A DNA stretch of 64,000 nt. Origin: Escherichia coli. GTDB taxonomy: Bacteria > Pseudomonadota > Gammaproteobacteria > Enterobacterales > Enterobacteriaceae. The notes under the pieces were generated by a model, which saw only the letters and a list, made by a program, of their open reading frames with translations, did no database searches and had not been told where the DNA came from. The stretch lies in NCBI RefSeq assembly GCF_044324875.1, contig NZ_CP172185.1. One strand, given 5' to 3'. The translations under genes and the position numbers were made by a program. Positions 2,696 through 33,526 of this stretch are shown here, in pieces; positions within the stretch are counted from its first letter, which is position 1, and the number at the start of each line of letters is the position of its first letter.

Positions 2696-4294
2696 TTAAC
2701 GTAACGGCATAATGGGTGTGATATGTCCATTATGCCGGGCGGGCGGCGGTTGGCTGCCCGCCAGCCATTTGGGAAAATCACATAGTGGCATCGGCTGTGC
2801 GTACAAATACCCTTGCAAAATATGGACGCCATGACGGCGCAAATATTTCGCCTGTTCTTGCGTTTCCACACCCTCCGCCACCAGTTCAATATTCAGTCTT
2901 TGCCCCAGTGCGATGATGATATCGGTCACCGTCGAGTTAACCGCGTCAGAACCTATAGCTGCGGTAAATGACTTATCAATTTTCAGCACGTCAGGACGTA
3001 ATGTTTCAAGCCAGGAAAACGAGCTGTTGCCGGTGCCGAAGTCATCAATCGCCAGTTTGACGTTTTTACGATGCAGCTCGCGGGCAATCCGATAATCAAC
3101 ATCCAGTAAGGCATCGCGTTCGGTGATTTCGAGGATCAGTTGCTGAATCGGGTGAGCGCTAAACCAGTACTGATTGAGATCTTTTATCAGCACACCACGG
3201 CGAAAATGGCTGGGTGCGACGTTAATGCCAACATGAAACTGACTACTCATTGGGAAAACATGCCGCTGACGGATGGTTTCTGCCATCACATAGCGGGTCA
3301 GTGGCACAATTAAATGATGTTCTTCCGCGATAGGAATAAACACATCCGGTGAAATCCAGCCCTGACGTGGATTGTTCCAGCGCAGCAAAATCTCTACACC
3401 AATACATTGCTGGCTGCGCGCATTAAGCAAAGGCTGGCAGAACAATTCGAACTCATGTTGCGCCAGGCCCAGATTGATCTCGCGGGAAAAGCTCATTCGG
3501 TAAGCGGTCGCCAGCCAGGCGATGTAGCCCACCAGTAAACTTAGCAGTACCGCCAGCGGTAATTGTGTTGGAAGATAGTGCCATGCCAGCGCCGTAGCCC
3601 CCGGGCCATTAACGTTAATGGTAAAAGGAAAGCGTTGCGAAGAAACCTGATAGTTTTCATTGTTTTCAGGTTGCGGAAGGGAATCTACCAGCCCATTACC
3701 ATAGAGCAAATGCCGACTGTCCACCGTCAGGCTGGCGCTACTGATTTGCGGCAGTTGTGGCTCAAGCAGCATTGCCGTCAGTAAGTCGATGTTAATCATC
3801 TCCATGACCCCAGCATTGCTACTGCTCGCTGCAGGCGTCCATTGAATCAAAACCGGACTGCCTTTAATCAGGACACGGTCGATCGTCAGGCGTAAAAGTG
3901 GTTGCGGTGCAGGAAGTTCAGCCAGAATGTCCACGACGGGCACATTGCGATAACCAAAAATGCTGGAGCAATAAAGTGTGCCGTCTTGCACCAGGCCAAT
4001 GGATCGCACAGTTTGGAGTTTTGCCGCCTGTTTACGTAATGGCAAATGGGCGACAGAGCAGGGCAGACCAATCAGCGGAAGCAAGACTTCGCTACCTGCC
4101 TGTAGGGGAAGCAGTACTTTATCTAATTCCTCTACAGCGTGATTAGCGAATTGTACTACCCGTTGTTGATTTAAGTTACGCTGTGAAATAAATCGCACGC
4201 TCAGGGTCGAAGCGAGCGTAACGAGTGCGCAAATCGTACAAACAATCATTCGATTACGGCGATAGGTTTTAATGATCCGTTGTGCTTTTTGCAT
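2696..4294 (-). CDS. pdeD: c-di-GMP phosphodiesterase PdeD (YoaD), CSS-motif periplasmic domain plus EAL domain
   Basis: ORF 2696-4324; start placed at the internal Met (MQKAQRIIK...) to give 532 aa; CSS motif (LYCSSIFGY) and EAL-domain region visible in translation. Confidence 0.88.
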   Translation of the reverse strand: MQKAQRIIKTYRRNRMIVCTICALVTLASTLSVRFISQRNLNQQRVVQFANHAVEELDKVLLPLQAGSEVLLPLIGLPCSVAHLPLRKQAAKLQTVRSIGLVQDGTLYCSSIFGYRNVPVVDILAELPAPQPLLRLTIDRVLIKGSPVLIQWTPAASSSNAGVMEMINIDLLTAMLLEPQLPQISSASLTVDSRHLLYGNGLVDSLPQPENNENYQVSSQRFPFTINVNGPGATALAWHYLPTQLPLAVLLSLLVGYIAWLATAYRMSFSREINLGLAQHEFELFCQPLLNARSQQCIGVEILLRWNNPRQGWISPDVFIPIAEEHHLIVPLTRYVMAETIRQRHVFPMSSQFHVGINVAPSHFRRGVLIKDLNQYWFSAHPIQQLILEITERDALLDVDYRIARELHRKNVKLAIDDFGTGNSSFSWLETLRPDVLKIDKSFTAAIGSDAVNSTVTDIIIALGQRLNIELVAEGVETQEQAKYLRRHGVHILQGYLYAQPMPLCDFPKWLAGSQPPPARHNGHITPIMPLR

Positions 4295-4424
4295 GCGGGC
4301 CACCCTGTAAGCGTATGGCGACAAACGCCTGACGCAACAGTGGAAGTGTAGTGGGGAAAATTACAGCAGACGAGAAAGCGGGGATAAATTCGCCCATCCG
4401 TTGCAGATGGGCGAGTAAGAAGTA

Positions 4425-5789
4425 TTAGTCACACTGGACTTTGATTGCCAGACCACCGCGTGAGGTTTCGCGGTATTTGGCGTTCATGTCCTTACCGGTT
4501 TCGTACATCGTTTCGATGACCTTATCCAGCGAGACGCGCGGTGCACTGGTGCGGCGCAGAGCCATCCGTGCGGCGTTAATCGCCTTCACAGAGGCAATGG
4601 CATTACGCTCAATGCACGGCACCTGAACCTGCCCTGCAACCGGGTCGCAGGTTAAACCAAGGTTGTGTTCCATGCCAATTTCCGCCGCCACGCAAACCTG
4701 TTCCGGGCTACCGCCCAGCAGTTCTGCAAGACCCGCAGCAGCCATTGAACAGGCAACACCCACTTCGCCCTGGCAACCAACTTCCGCACCGGAAATAGAG
4801 GCGTTCATTTTATACAATGCACCAATCGCGCCCGCTGCCATAACGTAACGGGTATAGATGTCCGGGCTGACCGATTCAATAAAGTGGTCATAGTAAGCCA
4901 GCACTGCCGGAACGATACCGCAGGCACCGTTGGTTGGCGCAGTTACCACACGACCACCGGCGGCGTTTTCTTCGTTAACTGCCAGCGCAAACATGTTTAC
5001 CCAGTCAATGACATTCATCGGATCGTTAGACAGTTTATCGCTGGAAACCAGCATCCGGCGCAGGGCAGACGCACGACGTGGCACGCGCAGCGGGCCTGGC
5101 AGTACACCTTCGGTGTTCATCCCGCGATCGATACATGCCTGCATGGTTTGCCAGACATGAGCGAAATACTCGTCGATCTCTTTCTTGCTGTGCAGCGCCA
5201 GTTCGTTCTGCATGGCGAGACCAGACAGCGAATAGCCGGTTTCATTACAGTACGCGAGCAGTTCGGTGGCAGATTTGAACGGATACGGCACGCTCACTTC
5301 GTTGGCGGCATCCTGACCAAAGTGTTCTTCATCGACGATAAAACCGCCGCCGATGGAATAATAAGTTTTGCTGTAGACGACTTCATCGCCATTATAGGCG
5401 TGGATTTGCATACCGTTTTCATGCAGCGGCAGGTTGCCGTTATGAAAACGCATCCCGTTGTCGCGCGGGAAATCCACTTCATGCCGTCCCTGTGCCAGCA
5501 GCAGACGTTCGCGCTCTTCTACGTCGCGAATAAAACCGGGAATACTGTCGATATCCACGGTGGCAGGTTCGTTACCTGCAAGACCCATAATAATGGCGAT
5601 ATCGGTGTGGTGGCCTTTACCCGTCAGCGACAGTGAACCATAAACGTCCACGGCAACGCGAGTAACGCTATCCAGTAAGCCTTTTTCGACCAGATCATCG
5701 ACGAACTGTTTACCCGCCTTCATAGGCCCTACGGTATGGGAAGATGAGGGACCAATCCCCACCTTAAACATGTCGAATAGACTAATCAC
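4425..5789 (-). CDS. sdaA: L-serine dehydratase 1 (iron-sulfur dependent)
   Basis: 454-aa [32 protein letters not shown]..., recognised as SdaA. Confidence 0.95.
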
Positions 5790-28532: not shown

Positions 28533-29714
28533 TTAGCGAATTTCTTTGTCTCTCCCGGCGCAAAGTCCGAAAATCGCCATCAGTAGTGAAAGTATGGCAA
28601 CACCCATCAATGGTATGGACCAGTCACCGTTAGTATCGTGTATTTTACCCATCAGCGGCGGCCCACAGGCTGCCAGCAAATACCCGACGGATTGTGCCAT
28701 CCCCGAGAGTGCCGCCGCCTGATGCGCAGAACTTGCCCGAAGACCAATGAACGTCAATCCCAGTATCATTGTTGCGCCGGAACCAAAGCCGAAAAGCAGA
28801 GTCCAGGTGATCGCGTGCGCTGGCATAAAGCAGAGCCCAACCGCGCCCACTGCGCACATCAAGGCAACGAACGCTGCAATACCACGCTGATCTTTCACAT
28901 GATGTAAGAAAAGTGGGATCAGCAAACCGGGAGCTGCTGTGGCTAGTTGCAGCAAACCATGCAGTGAACCCGCCTGTGCTTCGCTATAGCCGTGACTGAT
29001 GAGGATCGCCGGAAGCCAGCCAATAATCACGTAATAGACCAGTGAGTTGATCCCAAGAAACAATGTTACCTGCCAGGCAAGCGGAGAACGCCAGATACCC
29101 CGAGTATGTAAGGCGCGTGAGGTACTCAAATTTTCATGTTGTTGACTTCGCCACTGTGGCAGCCATAAAAAAAGAGCCAGCAGAGGAAAACACATCAGCA
29201 TGAGCAACGCGCCTTGCCAGCCAAAACCGTTCAAAGCCAGCGGCACGACCATAGCCGATCCCAGTGCCGCTGCAGCTCCCATTGTCAGGGAATATGCGCC
29301 GGTAAGTCTGGCGACGGAATGAGGGAAATCGCTTTTAATTAATCCTGGCAGTAAGACATTGCCTAATGCAATCCCACCGCCAATGACCGCTGTACCGCCA
29401 AATAAGAAGTAAGGCGAAGGGAGAGAGCGAATTGCGATGCCAGCACAGATCAAAAGTAACGCGGCAAACAGGCTACGTTCCATACCAAAACGTCGCGCCA
29501 CCGGGGCAGCCAGAGGTGAGATTAGCGCAAAGGCTAATAATGGCAGGGTGGTCAATAAGCCGGTTTGCGCCGTCGTCAGCGAGTAAGCGGAACGAATCGT
29601 ATCCAGTAACGGTGCTGCGCCGGTAAAGGTGACGCGTAATGTTGTGGCAATCATCAGAATACCAGCGATAAGGACAATCCTGTTTTTGCCGCTTAATGAA
29701 GTTGAACAGGTCAT
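28533..29714 (-). CDS. nimT: MFS transporter NimT (YeaN), 2-nitroimidazole exporter
   Basis: 393-aa 12-TM ORF; divergent from the AraC-type regulator gene nimR. Confidence 0.88.
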   Translation of the reverse strand: MTCSTSLSGKNRIVLIAGILMIATTLRVTFTGAAPLLDTIRSAYSLTTAQTGLLTTLPLLAFALISPLAAPVARRFGMERSLFAALLLICAGIAIRSLPSPYFLFGGTAVIGGGIALGNVLLPGLIKSDFPHSVARLTGAYSLTMGAAAALGSAMVVPLALNGFGWQGALLMLMCFPLLALFLWLPQWRSQQHENLSTSRALHTRGIWRSPLAWQVTLFLGINSLVYYVIIGWLPAILISHGYSEAQAGSLHGLLQLATAAPGLLIPLFLHHVKDQRGIAAFVALMCAVGAVGLCFMPAHAITWTLLFGFGSGATMILGLTFIGLRASSAHQAAALSGMAQSVGYLLAACGPPLMGKIHDTNGDWSIPLMGVAILSLLMAIFGLCAGRDKEIR

Positions 29715-29810
29715 ATGCTTCTCATTGTTACAAACGAGGCTGTACCTTACCGTTTTTATTGTTATGTTGAATCAAGCTAAAATGACAAATTATCGCTAAA
29801 TTCGGACAAA

Positions 29811-30632
29811 ATGATGCACAGGTTGAATCTCAATGGCTATGAACCCGACCGACACCATGAAGCCGCGGTCGCATTTTGTATTCACGCCGGAACGGATGAG
29901 TTAACCAGTCCTGTACATCAGCACCGCAAAGGACAGCTGATACTGGCGCTACATGGTGCAATTACCTGTACGGTGGAAAATGCTTTGTGGATGGTGCCAC
30001 CGCAATATGCGGTTTGGATACCGGGCGGGGTGGAACATAGCAATCAAGTGACAGCTAACGCTGAACTCTGTTTTCTGTTTATCGAACCCAGCGCAGTGAC
30101 AATGCCGACAACCTGTTGCACATTGAAAATATCGCCCTTATGCCGGGAATTAATTTTAACCCTGGCAAACAGAACGTCGACTCAGCGTGCTGAGCCGATG
30201 ACCCGCAGATTAATTCAGGTCCTGTTTGATGAACTCCCTCAGCAGCCACAACAACAGCTGCACCTACCCGTTTCTTCTCATCCTAAAATTCGCGCGATGG
30301 TGGAGATGATGGCGAAAGAGCCCGTCGAGTGGGGGTCATTGGGGCAATGGGCTCGCTTTTTTGCGATGAGTGAACGCAATCTTGCCCGACTGATAGTGAA
30401 AGAGACGGGGTTGAGTTTTCGCCAGTGGCGTCAGCAGTTACAGCTGATTATGGCGCTTCAGGGATTAGTGAAAGGCGATACTGTACAGAAAGTTGCTCAT
30501 ACGCTGGGGTATGATTCAACAACGGCCTTTATTACTATGTTTAAGAAAGGCCTGGGGCAAACGCCAGGCCGATATATTGCGGGATTAACTACTGTTTCCC
30601 CACAATCAGCGAAACCAGACCCGCGGCAATAA
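29811..30632 (+). CDS. nimR: AraC-family transcriptional regulator NimR (YeaM)
   Basis: 273-aa ORF with cupin-like N-terminus and C-terminal AraC HTH. Confidence 0.88.
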
Positions 30633-31035
30633 GCGGGCCAACCGGTACGCCGCGAAACAGCGCCACGCCCAAAACAGTGCCCACCAGCAGCCCGGCGACC
30701 AGTTGCGGCTGGCTGCCCATTAACGTCACGCCGCGCCCACCTAGCCAGGAGACAATAACGCCTACTGCAATTGCCACCAGCGATTTCCAGTTCAGAAACG
30801 AGTGAATCAGGGTTGAGGGCGGTAGCGTGCCGCTGGCGATGGGGGCCATAACGCCAATCGTCAGAATGATTATCCCGATACTTAGCCCCTGTTTTTCAAT
30901 CCACGGGAAAAAGGTGCTTAACGGTGTGACGCGGACAATGATTAACACCAGAATTGAAACGGCGACAGTGGTGTTATGACTGATAAAGCCCAGCGCAGCT
31001 AACCCGAGCAGGATCAGCAAAGTGACATCAAACAT
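30589..31035 (-). CDS. yeaL: DUF441/UPF0756 inner-membrane protein YeaL
   Basis: 148-aa hydrophobic ORF; its 3' end overlaps the 3' end of nimR by 44 bp (convergent). Confidence 0.88.
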
Positions 31036-31204
31036 CGTGGTTTCCTTGCCAAAAAATAATAAGCCTGCTTACTTTACGCTTGCTGCAGGAAGGAAGTAGA
31101 AAATCTTTACGTTTTTTGCATAAAAAATCAGGCGAACTGTCATCAAACTGCAATTTGTGCACGCTAACAATAACGTGAAAACAGCTATCTCCCGGGGGCA
31201 TACT

Positions 31205-31309
31205 ATGAACGATCAAATGTTCGTCGAGACACTGATTATCACGTCATCGTTTTTTGCCATTGCTGTTGTGCTGGTTTTGTCCGTTCTTCTTATCGAACGG
31301 ACAGGCTAG
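31205..31309 (+). CDS. yoaI: Small membrane protein YoaI (34 aa)
   Basis: [37 protein letters not shown]; its stop codon abuts the stop of convergent yeaK. Confidence 0.75.
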
Positions 31310-31813
31310 TTACGCAGTGCGGCGGAAATTGACCAGTTCTGGTTGCGCAATGCGCAAATAATCCGCGGTTTTCAAAATAACGGATTTATCCAGCATGCCT
31401 GCATTGAAGGCGATTTCATCAAATCGTTCGAAGAGTAGGGGATCGGCAACCAGTTTGAGTTTTGGATGGAAGCTGAAAGGGGTGATCGCGCCGAAGACAC
31501 AGCCTGTGAGTTCATCGACTTCCGCCGGGCTGGCCAACGAAGCGCGTAATCCGCCTATATGGCTGGCGAGTTGGCTCAGATCGGCCTGTTGATCGGCCGC
31601 GAGGATCGCCAGAACATGTTGATTTACACCATTGCCTTTGACTTTACATACCAGTGCCTTAGCCCCCTGGCCTAAAGCGGTGCCACGAATTTCTGACACC
31701 GCTTCACATTTACCTACCGCTTCATGGGTAACGACGCGGAAGTCAGCACCTTCTTGTGATAATAAAGCGATTAACCGCTGATGCGTCACGCTTCCTTTAG
31801 CCATTTCAGTCAT
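31310..31813 (-). CDS. yeaK: YbaK/ProX-type aminoacyl-tRNA deacylase YeaK
   Basis: 167-aa ORF MTEMAKGSVTHQRLIALLSQEGADFRVVTHEAVGKCEAV.... Confidence 0.88.
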   Translation of the reverse strand: MTEMAKGSVTHQRLIALLSQEGADFRVVTHEAVGKCEAVSEIRGTALGQGAKALVCKVKGNGVNQHVLAILAADQQADLSQLASHIGGLRASLASPAEVDELTGCVFGAITPFSFHPKLKLVADPLLFERFDEIAFNAGMLDKSVILKTADYLRIAQPELVNFRRTA

Positions 31814-31855
31814 TTCATGCTCCTGAGATTACAAGCAAACAACCACAGAAGGTTA

Positions 31856-33346
31856 TCATGAACGGCTGTTTTTGTTCTGCTTATTGACATATAAACGCTC
31901 ATCGGAAGCTTTATACGCATCATGTAACGTATCGTTTTCTTTCATCGCGTAAATACCGGAAGAGAAGCCGATCTCTTTCTGCGGCGCGATATGTTGCAGA
32001 CGTTTTTCGATACGTTCAGGCAGTTGTGCTGCAATTTGCGGCGTCGAATCGACTAGAATGATGCAGAATTCATCGCCACCGAGTCGGATGGCATAATCAC
32101 TTTTACGAATCGACTGTTTAATCGCCTGAGCTAATAACGTAATCGCTAAATCCCCCTCCTGATGACCGAGGGTGTCATTTATTTGCTTTAACTTGTCCAT
32201 GTCAATTGCAATAAACATCACCGAAGAACCGGATTGCACCAGTTTTTGCAACCGCTGCTCCAGTTCAGGGGTTAAAATTTTGCGATTATACAGTCCTGTC
32301 ATCGCATCACTAATATTTTCTCGCGACACATTTTGGTATAAACGGAAGTGCATCCGCACCATATTCAGCAAAATTAACGCCGTCAAAATCCAGAACAGAA
32401 CGCTTTTCCACGAAGACGTGATAAAGTAAAGAATATCAATGGATAACGAGACACGAATACCGCCCGGTAAGTCATGGACGTAACTGACATACTGGAACAG
32501 ATTATCTTCGCTCTGGTTGATGATAATGTCGCGCCCCGAATCGGTATCGGTTAGCGTGACATTGAGAAAACGCCAGAGGAGAGGGCGGTCATGAGTGTAA
32601 AAGATATTCCGCAGATTGTTTTTGTTAATATCCAGCAGCACAATCCCTTTTAGCTGCCCTGCGACATATACCGGCGTCAGCAAACTCATCACGTTCTGTT
32701 TAGTACGCTGATCCTGGTAAATGCTCGATAAAACGGTACGCCCGGTAAATACCTTTTCAATATCTTTGCGATCGATGCCAATACTTCCTGACTGCAGGAA
32801 AGACCAGTTATTCATCGCAAAGTATTCAACATTAACCGGCTCATAAAAATAGACATAGCGGTCATTGAGATCGAGATAATAGTGAAATTTCTCTTCGGCC
32901 ATCCCAAGACCTGAACCGTAATCATCCTGGTGGCGGTTGCCTTCCACTGCCTGATCAAAAGCGGGTAATAGTGCTGCAGCTTCCACAATTGTGTCGCAGT
33001 CAGTGGATGCGGTTTGTAGTGTGCCGCGTAAGCCAGGGTATTTATGGGCAGTCAGGTTTAAGCCATGGGTATTATTGGCAGACTCAAAAGCCTCGCAGAT
33101 GGCGCGCCGCTGTTCTGGCGACACTTCCGACTGCTCAGCAGCGAGAGCGCGCATCACATGCGCGGCAATACTCTGATTCTGATACTTATCATAAAGAAAG
33201 GAGGAGTCTGCTCTCTGCACGATATAGCGCAGATAGGCACTCATTGCTCTGTCACTGGCGACAAGTTCAAAAATAAGGAAGGAAGATGTCAGCACAATGA
33301 CACTTGCGGCGATAAAATGCCGGAGCATTCTATGGTGCAATTTCAT
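31856..33346 (-). CDS. dgcJ: Diguanylate cyclase DgcJ (YeaJ), membrane-anchored periplasmic sensor plus GGDEF
   Basis: ORF 31856-33526; start placed at MKLHHRMLRHF... to give 496 aa; GGDEF motif (RLGGDEFCII) present. Confidence 0.88.
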   Translation of the reverse strand: MKLHHRMLRHFIAASVIVLTSSFLIFELVASDRAMSAYLRYIVQRADSSFLYDKYQNQSIAAHVMRALAAEQSEVSPEQRRAICEAFESANNTHGLNLTAHKYPGLRGTLQTASTDCDTIVEAAALLPAFDQAVEGNRHQDDYGSGLGMAEEKFHYYLDLNDRYVYFYEPVNVEYFAMNNWSFLQSGSIGIDRKDIEKVFTGRTVLSSIYQDQRTKQNVMSLLTPVYVAGQLKGIVLLDINKNNLRNIFYTHDRPLLWRFLNVTLTDTDSGRDIIINQSEDNLFQYVSYVHDLPGGIRVSLSIDILYFITSSWKSVLFWILTALILLNMVRMHFRLYQNVSRENISDAMTGLYNRKILTPELEQRLQKLVQSGSSVMFIAIDMDKLKQINDTLGHQEGDLAITLLAQAIKQSIRKSDYAIRLGGDEFCIILVDSTPQIAAQLPERIEKRLQHIAPQKEIGFSSGIYAMKENDTLHDAYKASDERLYVNKQNKNSRS

Positions 33347-33526
33347 GATAAATGGCACTCCTTCGGTTAGTGAAACGAGAAAACCAGATAAAGTTCGATT
33401 GCGGCCTGGCACAGGGGCGCTAATTATACTCATCTCTGCGCCGCTGGGGAGGGGAAATTTAGGGGTAATAGTAATAAATTGTATGCAAAAGCCACGCAAA
33501 AAGCATGGCTCTGAATATTTTTGCAC

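Follow-up and report, generated by a model that had tools for sequence, protein, structure and literature searches.

The yoaI and yeaK genes of Escherichia coli converge and end on neighbouring bases, and this arrangement raises the question of whether their transcripts overlap and, if so, whether the overlap affects the expression of either gene. A preliminary description of the locus proposed that the two transcripts must overlap in their 3' ends, giving scope for antisense interference. We addressed this question by combining an analysis of a 64,000-nucleotide stretch of E. coli DNA (contig NZ_CP172185.1; hereafter the window, to which positions refer unless stated otherwise) with a comparison across species and with published transcriptomic data. 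The results identify yeaK and yoaI as a genuine overlapping convergent pair that is already catalogued as such; the evidence for a regulatory effect of the overlap is weak, and its role appears to be modest at most.

The stop codons of yoaI and yeaK abut

In the window, yoaI occupies positions 31205-31309 on the + strand, with its ATG at 31205 and 34 codons followed by a TAG at 31307-31309, and encodes the small inner-membrane protein YoaI (34 aa). The yeaK coding sequence lies at 31310-31813 on the - strand, comprises 167 codons plus TAA and encodes a mischarged aminoacyl-tRNA deacylase; in the list of open reading frames it runs on the - strand from 31813 to 31310, its TAA being the reverse complement of 31310-31312. 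Read directly from the window, the junction is gaa cgg aca ggc TAG/TTA cgc agt, with the two stop codons on neighbouring bases (31307-31312) and a gap of 0 nt. The next gene after yeaK is the co-directional yeaL (30589-31035, - strand). YoaI matches the NCBIfam equivalog NF041475 with 79.8 bits (cut-off 45), and YeaK matches Pfam tRNA_edit (PF04073) with 95.5 bits.

RefSeq annotation places the two genes in the same abutting positions in MG1655, with yeaK at 1873574-1874077 (+) and yoaI at 1874078-1874182 (-), and in an E. coli genome of 99.9% identity; MG1655 coordinates equal 1905387 minus the window coordinate, with strands flipped. The segment is present in 5411 of 5426 complete genomes, and the window is E. 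coli. Sequence, open reading frames and RefSeq annotation thus bear out the preliminary observation that the yoaI TAG directly adjoins the yeaK stop codon on the opposite strand.

Tight convergence is conserved across species and exact abutment is not

The MG1655 region that corresponds to the window contains 11 convergent CDS pairs, and four of these present gaps of 3 nt or less: yeaL/nimR (-44 nt), nudG/ynjH (-35 nt), yeaK/yoaI (0 nt) and pdeD/yoaE (3 nt). The yeaO/yoaF pair follows with 21 nt, and the six remaining pairs are separated by 47, 53, 58, 92, 116 and 119 nt. The gap is too short for any terminator in 4 of the 11 pairs, and the abutment of yoaI and yeaK is no more than chance expectation and not special.

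Using YeaK as query, we gathered 80 loci from different species. Of these, 41 have a yoaI homolog downstream of yeaK, and in 39 of the 41 the two genes are directly tail-to-tail, with a CDS gap that ranges from -4 to +30 nt across the 39 enterobacterial species. Stop codons overlap (gap -4 nt) in eight species, and in seven the gap is 0 nt, these being all six other Escherichia species and, beyond the genus, only Cedecea davisae. A further 11 species present gaps of 1-14 nt, and the remaining 13, mostly Enterobacter and Lelliottia, gaps of 20-30 nt. Tight convergence of yoaI and yeaK is therefore conserved, but a gap of exactly 0 nt is not and reflects a detail of particular lineages.

In the other two species a TonB-dependent copper receptor gene of 2.2 kb sits between yoaI and yeaK, and yoaI is missing from many genera in the 80-locus set. 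Where the yeaK-yeaL spacer was long and no tblastn match was obtained (Kluyvera and others), a search for a divergent yoaI returned no plausible small hydrophobic ORF. The intervening gene in two species and the existence of genera lacking yoaI together indicate that the coupling of yoaI to yeaK is dispensable.

yoaI is a coding gene under PhoB control

In almost all species examined, yeaK and yeaL lie next to each other in the same direction. The spacer between them measures 60-186 nt if yoaI is missing and approximately 250-330 nt if it is present. The difference in spacer length indicates that yoaI and its promoter form a module of approximately 170-200 nt that occupies the yeaK-yeaL spacer on the strand opposite to those two genes. 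Among 40 distinct yoaI orthologs, mean pairwise differences by codon position are 9.7, 4.5 and 16.3, a coding-type pattern in which changes fall mostly on the third position.

All 40 loci present a Pho-box-like site with two TGTCA half-sites located 43-58 nt upstream of the yoaI start codon. In the window, the Pho box spans 31137-31155 on the + strand, with two TGTCA-type half-sites, and corresponds to the PhoB ChIP-seq site TGTCATCAAACTGCCATT upstream of yoaI/yeaL from which PhoB-dependent yoaI transcription is driven. At position 31152 of the Pho box, the window has A rather than C. Published ChIP-seq data establish yoaI as a direct PhoB target with PhoB-dependent RNAP and sigma-70 occupancy, and normalised yoaI reads amount to approximately 12,000 in the wild type versus 28 in the delta-phoB strain (log2 8.8, or approximately 450-fold; PMC10294691). 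Array data from EHEC likewise report induction of yoaI under phosphate limitation. With a Pho box at promoter distance and PhoB-dependent transcription, yoaI belongs to the Pho regulon.

At the protein level, YoaI has been detected as a YoaI-SPA fusion, and binds and activates EnvZ, acting as a connector from PhoR-PhoB to EnvZ-OmpR. Its level rises post-transcriptionally at low Mg2+, as measured with a chromosomal yoaI-SPA fusion, and its overexpression impairs growth. The PhoB-driven reads and the YoaI-SPA protein leave no room for the objection, raised in advance in the preliminary description, that yoaI might not be expressed at all.

yeaK-strand transcription extends across the whole of yoaI

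A consensus scan of the window for intrinsic terminators identified no terminator-like site around the junction, whether on the + or the - strand. Under one uniform terminator rule, none of the 39 tight loci presented a terminator within 170 nt downstream of yoaI (0/39), and an intrinsic terminator for yeaK was found in only six of the 39, all of the Enterobacter group and with a gap of approximately 20 nt. In these six loci the hairpin fills the gap, and its U-tract is the antisense of the last yoaI codons.

Strand-specific counts for wild-type total RNA (Huang 2020 Table S1c) give 45.36 RPM for yeaK sense, 2.35 and 13.36 RPM for yoaI sense and antisense, respectively, and 4.54 RPM for yeaL sense. 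Per kilobase, these values correspond on the yeaK strand to approximately 90 RPM over yeaK, 127 across yoaI and 10 over yeaL. The yeaK-strand RNA thus crosses all of yoaI undiminished and drops before yeaL. On the opposite strand, yoaI sense RNA amounts to approximately 22 RPM/kb, so that in replete cells antisense RNA exceeds sense RNA over yoaI 5.7-fold.

The position of this drop is in keeping with a Rho termination region on the yeaK strand reported from DirectRNA-seq with and without bicyclomycin (BCM; score 2.8, p = 1.0e-5; Adams 2021). The best-scoring position of this region, mapped coarsely in 800-nt windows, is MG1655 1874225 (+), or position 31162 here (Adams 2021 Supplementary file 2), which by coordinate conversion falls 148 nt past the yeaK stop codon and 43 nt beyond the yoaI ATG. 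Reads upstream and downstream of the region number 73 and 36 in untreated cells and 120 and 166 with BCM (Adams 2021). The tables of the same study list no curated Term-seq 3' end between MG1655 18736xx and 18744xx. The C/G ratio downstream of the stop codons is unremarkable, at 0.7-1.4 over yoaI antisense and rising only deep within yeaK antisense, and rut-like C-rich composition speaks neither for nor against Rho action. An Rfam scan of positions 29500-33500 returned just a sub-threshold JUMPstart match located elsewhere.

The Rho region and the coverage delimit a yeaK 3' UTR, or read-through RNA, at 31162-31309 on the - strand, which is antisense to the entire yoaI ORF, its SD and its 5' UTR. 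The continuity of the coverage suggests that this antisense RNA is yeaK read-through and not an independent transcript from an antisense promoter within or downstream of yeaK. With no terminator between the genes and yeaK-strand reads across yoaI, the possibility that both transcripts stop before meeting does not hold.

RNase III-type double-stranded RNA covers the yoaI ribosome-binding site

Table S3 of Huang 2020 compiles perfectly paired 21-22-nt duplexes bearing the signature of RNase III that were obtained by in vivo p19 capture. One of them, a 22-nt duplex assigned to yoaI, is formed by the strands UCGUUCAUAGCAUGCCCCCGGG (166 reads) and CGGGGGCAUGCUAUGAACGAUC (210 reads), which pair perfectly with 2-nt overhangs. 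The duplex maps to 31191-31214, covering the yoaI SD (GGGGG, 31194-31198), the ATG and codons 2-4, and its sequence is that of the window except for a known SNP at 31202. In all six p19 datasets, dsRNA density per kilobase is 6-11 times higher over yoaI than over yeaK (Huang 2020). The p19-captured duplexes are pervasive, however, numbering thousands genome-wide (Huang 2020), and for this reason one duplex at yoaI does not imply regulation.

The pair is also listed among 165 MG1655 convergent excludons in Table 1 of the ExcludonFinder study (NAR 2025, PMC12288877), in which each excludon was present in at least 50% of 58 RNA-seq samples. From the region of the window, ExcludonFinder lists the five pairs with a gap of 21 nt or less and no others, and for such short-gap pairs the excludon call follows almost automatically from the gap. 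In sum, yeaK and yoaI are tail-to-tail neighbours that overlap at the RNA level and yield RNase III-type dsRNA within the overlap, as convergent excludons do. The coverage, the Rho region, the dsRNA and the ExcludonFinder listing uphold the proposal that the transcripts overlap; its further notion of an overlap confined to 3' ends needs correction, since all of yoaI, including its ribosome-binding site, is antisense to the yeaK 3' UTR.

Any effect of the overlap on expression is probably small

The phosphate data provide a view of yeaK when yoaI is strongly transcribed. In directional ScriptSeq libraries with two replicates, yeaK reads were 389 and 413 in the wild type versus 709 and 655 in the delta-phoB strain (PMC10294691), so that yeaK is down 1.7-fold (log2 -0.8, q = 0.0115) when yoaI is induced approximately 450-fold. 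This change falls short of both thresholds used by the authors of that study (q < 0.01 and 2-fold), and shifts of this size are seen for hundreds of genes in the same comparison. The dgcJ gene, upstream of yeaK, shows no fall (210 and 176 reads in the wild type versus 158 and 143 in delta-phoB; PMC10294691). The drop in yeaK has the direction expected from interference by the yoaI promoter, but its size is modest and PhoB acts indirectly in many ways, making this a thin indication.

For the reverse effect, yoaI sense RNA changes from 2.35 RPM in the wild type to 2.21 and 1.86 RPM in two rnc mutants (Huang 2020). The lack of any rise argues against strong RNase III-mediated repression of yoaI. 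The geometry therefore provides the scope for antisense interference that had been anticipated, but beyond that scope the data offer just the 1.7-fold drop in yeaK and no rise of yoaI in rnc mutants.

An ordinary convergent excludon is the likely explanation

Taken jointly, these observations are probably best read as an ordinary convergent excludon that arose from genome compaction and has small regulatory consequences. Under this explanation, the PhoB-activated yoaI and its Pho-box promoter occupy the spacer between yeaK and yeaL on the other strand, and in Escherichia neither spacer nor intrinsic terminator is left between yoaI and yeaK. Transcription on the yeaK strand passes the yeaK stop codon and covers the yoaI ORF, ribosome-binding site and 5' UTR until stopped by Rho approximately 150 nt on, before yeaL, and yoaI transcripts would run, antisense, into the 3' part of yeaK. 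Both the read-through of yeaK and the run-in of yoaI would follow from the missing spacer and the missing terminator. The two RNAs form a duplex that is cut by RNase III. In phosphate-replete cells, the basal expression of yoaI would probably be somewhat damped, and when PhoB fires the stronger yoaI promoter, yeaK would probably be reduced by less than 2-fold. The reach of yoaI RNA into yeaK and a causal effect of the overlap on the expression of either gene are expectations of this model.

Alternative readings of the overlap

The same overlap could be a selected switch, with PhoB-driven yoaI transcription repressing yeaK through polymerase collision and/or RNase III, and yeaK read-through silencing yoaI, so that expression of the two genes would be mutually exclusive. 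We regard such a functional excludon as unlikely. Its appeal lies in the recurrence of the arrangement, with 39 of 41 species that have yoaI downstream of yeaK keeping the two gene ends within -4 to +30 nt, and yoaI never presenting a terminator of its own. The expression data point the same way insofar as yeaK is 1.7-fold down at approximately 450-fold yoaI induction with no fall in the upstream dgcJ, antisense RNA is 5.7-fold above sense over yoaI in replete cells, RNase III-signature dsRNA lies over the yoaI ribosome-binding site and the pair is listed by ExcludonFinder. The effect on yeaK, however, is small and statistically marginal, and rnc mutants do not de-repress yoaI RNA. Furthermore, a tRNA deacylase has no evident functional connection to phosphate/EnvZ signalling, the yeaK terminator of the Enterobacter clade would limit the overlap to the last yoaI codons, and the coupling is dispensable, with a 2.2-kb gene inserted in two species and many genera devoid of yoaI.

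A more specific proposal is that the Rho-limited yeaK 3' UTR acts as a cis-antisense gate on YoaI translation by pairing with the SD and AUG, which would explain the rise in YoaI at low Mg2+, and that, conversely, PhoB-driven yoaI lowers YeaK in phosphate starvation. We consider this proposal doubtful. In the chromosomal fusion with which the low-Mg2+ rise was recorded, the SPA tag cassette would separate yoaI from yeaK read-through, and this speaks against a need for the antisense RNA in that response. If true, gating by the yeaK 3' UTR would tie the transcription of a tRNA-editing gene, or the efficiency of Rho termination, to the cross-talk between PhoRB and EnvZ/OmpR.

The junction also invites the model of Ju 2019 and Wang-Liu, under which an inverted repeat at 31278-31303 would pause both polymerases and generate defined, Rho-independent 3' ends with a short overlap. 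The element in question is a 9-bp perfect inverted repeat, TGTCCGTTC and GAACGGACA separated by an 8-nt loop, located within the last yoaI codons and 6 nt from the yeaK stop codon. It folds in both transcripts, and the model was made for convergent E. coli pairs without canonical terminators. A collision-type bidirectional terminator is nonetheless very improbable here: yeaK-strand coverage over yoaI matches the level in yeaK, with no drop past the hairpin, and termination on that strand is BCM-sensitive, and hence Rho-dependent, and takes place approximately 120 nt past it. No curated Term-seq 3' end is listed at the hairpin (Adams 2021), and the model presupposes two well-expressed genes, which is at odds with the near-silence of yoaI in the absence of PhoB. 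Considered separately as a conserved element, the inverted repeat was rejected: it has no U-tract in either direction, it ranks no better than 5.8% among local background windows, the median percentile over the 39 loci is 0.47, and Salmonella, Enterobacter and several Escherichia species use other codons that break the repeat.

We deem it equally improbable that yeaK and yeaL share one mRNA spanning the antisense yoaI, in a noncontiguous operon coupling all three genes. The two genes are co-directional in almost every species, with yoaI between them on the other strand, and BCM increases read-through past the Rho region. In the wild type, however, coverage falls about 9-12-fold from the yoaI-antisense segment to yeaL, a Rho termination region lies between the two, and yeaK-yeaL is not among the three E. 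coli cases of noncontiguous operon reported by ExcludonFinder (PMC12288877).

Lastly, a type I toxin-antitoxin system was tried and rejected, as a scan for promoter-like sites at 30500-32100 returned none on either strand (a weak negative, the scan covering the sigma-70 consensus only), the antisense coverage fits yeaK read-through and YoaI is described as a signalling connector.

Significance and comparison with known systems

In biological terms, the ordinary convergent excludon that we favour is one more catalogued case of the convergent overlaps that pervade E. coli, and would be of interest only if its cis effect proved sizeable. Its main value is practical. Since the yeaK 3' UTR runs antisense to the whole of yoaI and the stop codons touch, edits at either gene change the 3' region of the other, so that a deletion, tag or cassette at yoaI or yeaK alters the 3' UTR and termination region of its partner. 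With the usual cassette design, for instance, read-through from a cassette replacing yeaK would run antisense over yoaI. Phenotypes ascribed to yoaI or yeaK should accordingly be checked for cis effects.

Several known systems share features with this locus. In type I toxin-antitoxin systems such as hok/Sok, ibs/Sib and tisB/IstR, a small hydrophobic membrane protein is encoded by an mRNA whose ribosome-binding site is paired by an antisense RNA, with cleavage by RNase III. The likeness extends to the small hydrophobic YoaI, the antisense RNA covering its ribosome-binding site, RNase III cleavage and the harm to growth on overexpression. Here, however, the antisense appears to be the 3' UTR of the neighbouring yeaK, with no dedicated sRNA promoter evident, YoaI is an activator of EnvZ, and yoaI RNA is unchanged in rnc mutants.

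The noncontiguous operons of the menE-menC-MW1733-ytkD type in S. aureus resemble the locus in that yeaK and yeaL are split by an opposite, fully overlapped yoaI, but differ from it in that here Rho halts most yeaK-strand transcription before yeaL is reached. Collision-driven bidirectional terminators (Ju et al. 2019; Wang et al., bioRxiv 2022.10.23.513370) likewise involve convergent pairs without canonical terminators and a hairpin at the boundary, whereas here termination on the yeaK strand is Rho-dependent and takes place past a hairpin that is not conserved, and yoaI is normally silent. Parallels are also offered by the convergent excludons of Listeria and S. aureus and those mapped in E. 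coli (PMC12288877), with which the yeaK-yoaI pair shares opposite-strand neighbours, overlapping transcripts and RNase III-type dsRNA. It differs from them in presenting only a marginal, 1.7-fold change in expression, and in the asymmetry of the overlap, with the small yoaI wholly covered by the yeaK 3' UTR.

Divergence of the yoaI promoter and of the yoaI-yeaK junction

The yoaI upstream region of the strain studied here differs from that of MG1655 at two positions. The yoaI Pho box of this strain reads TGCAAT in its second half-site (window 31152), whereas MG1655 carries TGCCAT and every other Escherichia locus presents GCCAT there. Induction of yoaI by PhoB may be weaker in this strain. The second substitution (window 31202) is a single base located between the yoaI Shine-Dalgarno sequence and its ATG.

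Application of a uniform rule to the 39 species in which yoaI lies directly tail-to-tail with yeaK identified an intrinsic terminator of yeaK in six species, and in no locus with an intergenic gap of 14 nt or less. In Enterobacter-group loci, a canonical yeaK intrinsic terminator (3509-3538 in locus L046; 1173-1211 in locus L034) sits in the approximately 20-nt gap between both genes, with its U-tract specified by the antisense of the last yoaI codons (E-R-K-G). In Enterobacter asburiae and Huaxiibacter chinensis, yoaI and yeaK are separated by a gene encoding a TonB-dependent copper receptor (TIGR01778, 811 bits; 3518-5560 in locus L030 and 3520-5589 in locus L028). This gene shares the orientation of yoaI, with its start 174 nt downstream, and may hence constitute a yoaI-linked unit driven by the Pho box.

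Transcription of the genes flanking yeaK

In published PhoB RNA-seq data (PMC10294691), mean yeaL (window 30589-31035) expression was 35.6 in the wild-type and 67.2 in the delta-phoB strain (log2 -0.9), a non-significant trend (q = 0.28). A block of yeaK-strand read-through into yeaL, whether by binding of PhoB or by firing of yoaI, would be expected to shift yeaL expression this way. A sub-threshold match to the Rfam JUMPstart family (24.8 bits against a gathering threshold of 35; E = 0.025), antisense within yeaL (window 30800-30829, + strand), is probably due to chance. Upstream of yeaK, Adams et al. (Supplementary file 2) report a further Rho termination region within dgcJ (MG1655 1872252, + strand; window ~33135, - strand), which suggests premature termination within this diguanylate cyclase gene.

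Comparison with other convergent gene pairs

Open reading frames and annotation reveal a 44-bp tail-to-tail overlap between the yeaL (-) and nimR (+) coding sequences (window 30589-30632), a tighter convergence than that of yoaI and yeaK. The 64-kb span of the window also encompasses two further, very closely spaced convergent pairs: pdeD/yoaE, separated by a 3-nt gap (MG1655 1900025-1900029), and nudG/ynjH, overlapping by 35 bp (MG1655 1841863-1841897). Like yeaK-yoaI, all three pairs are included in the ExcludonFinder list of MG1655 convergent excludons (PMC12288877).
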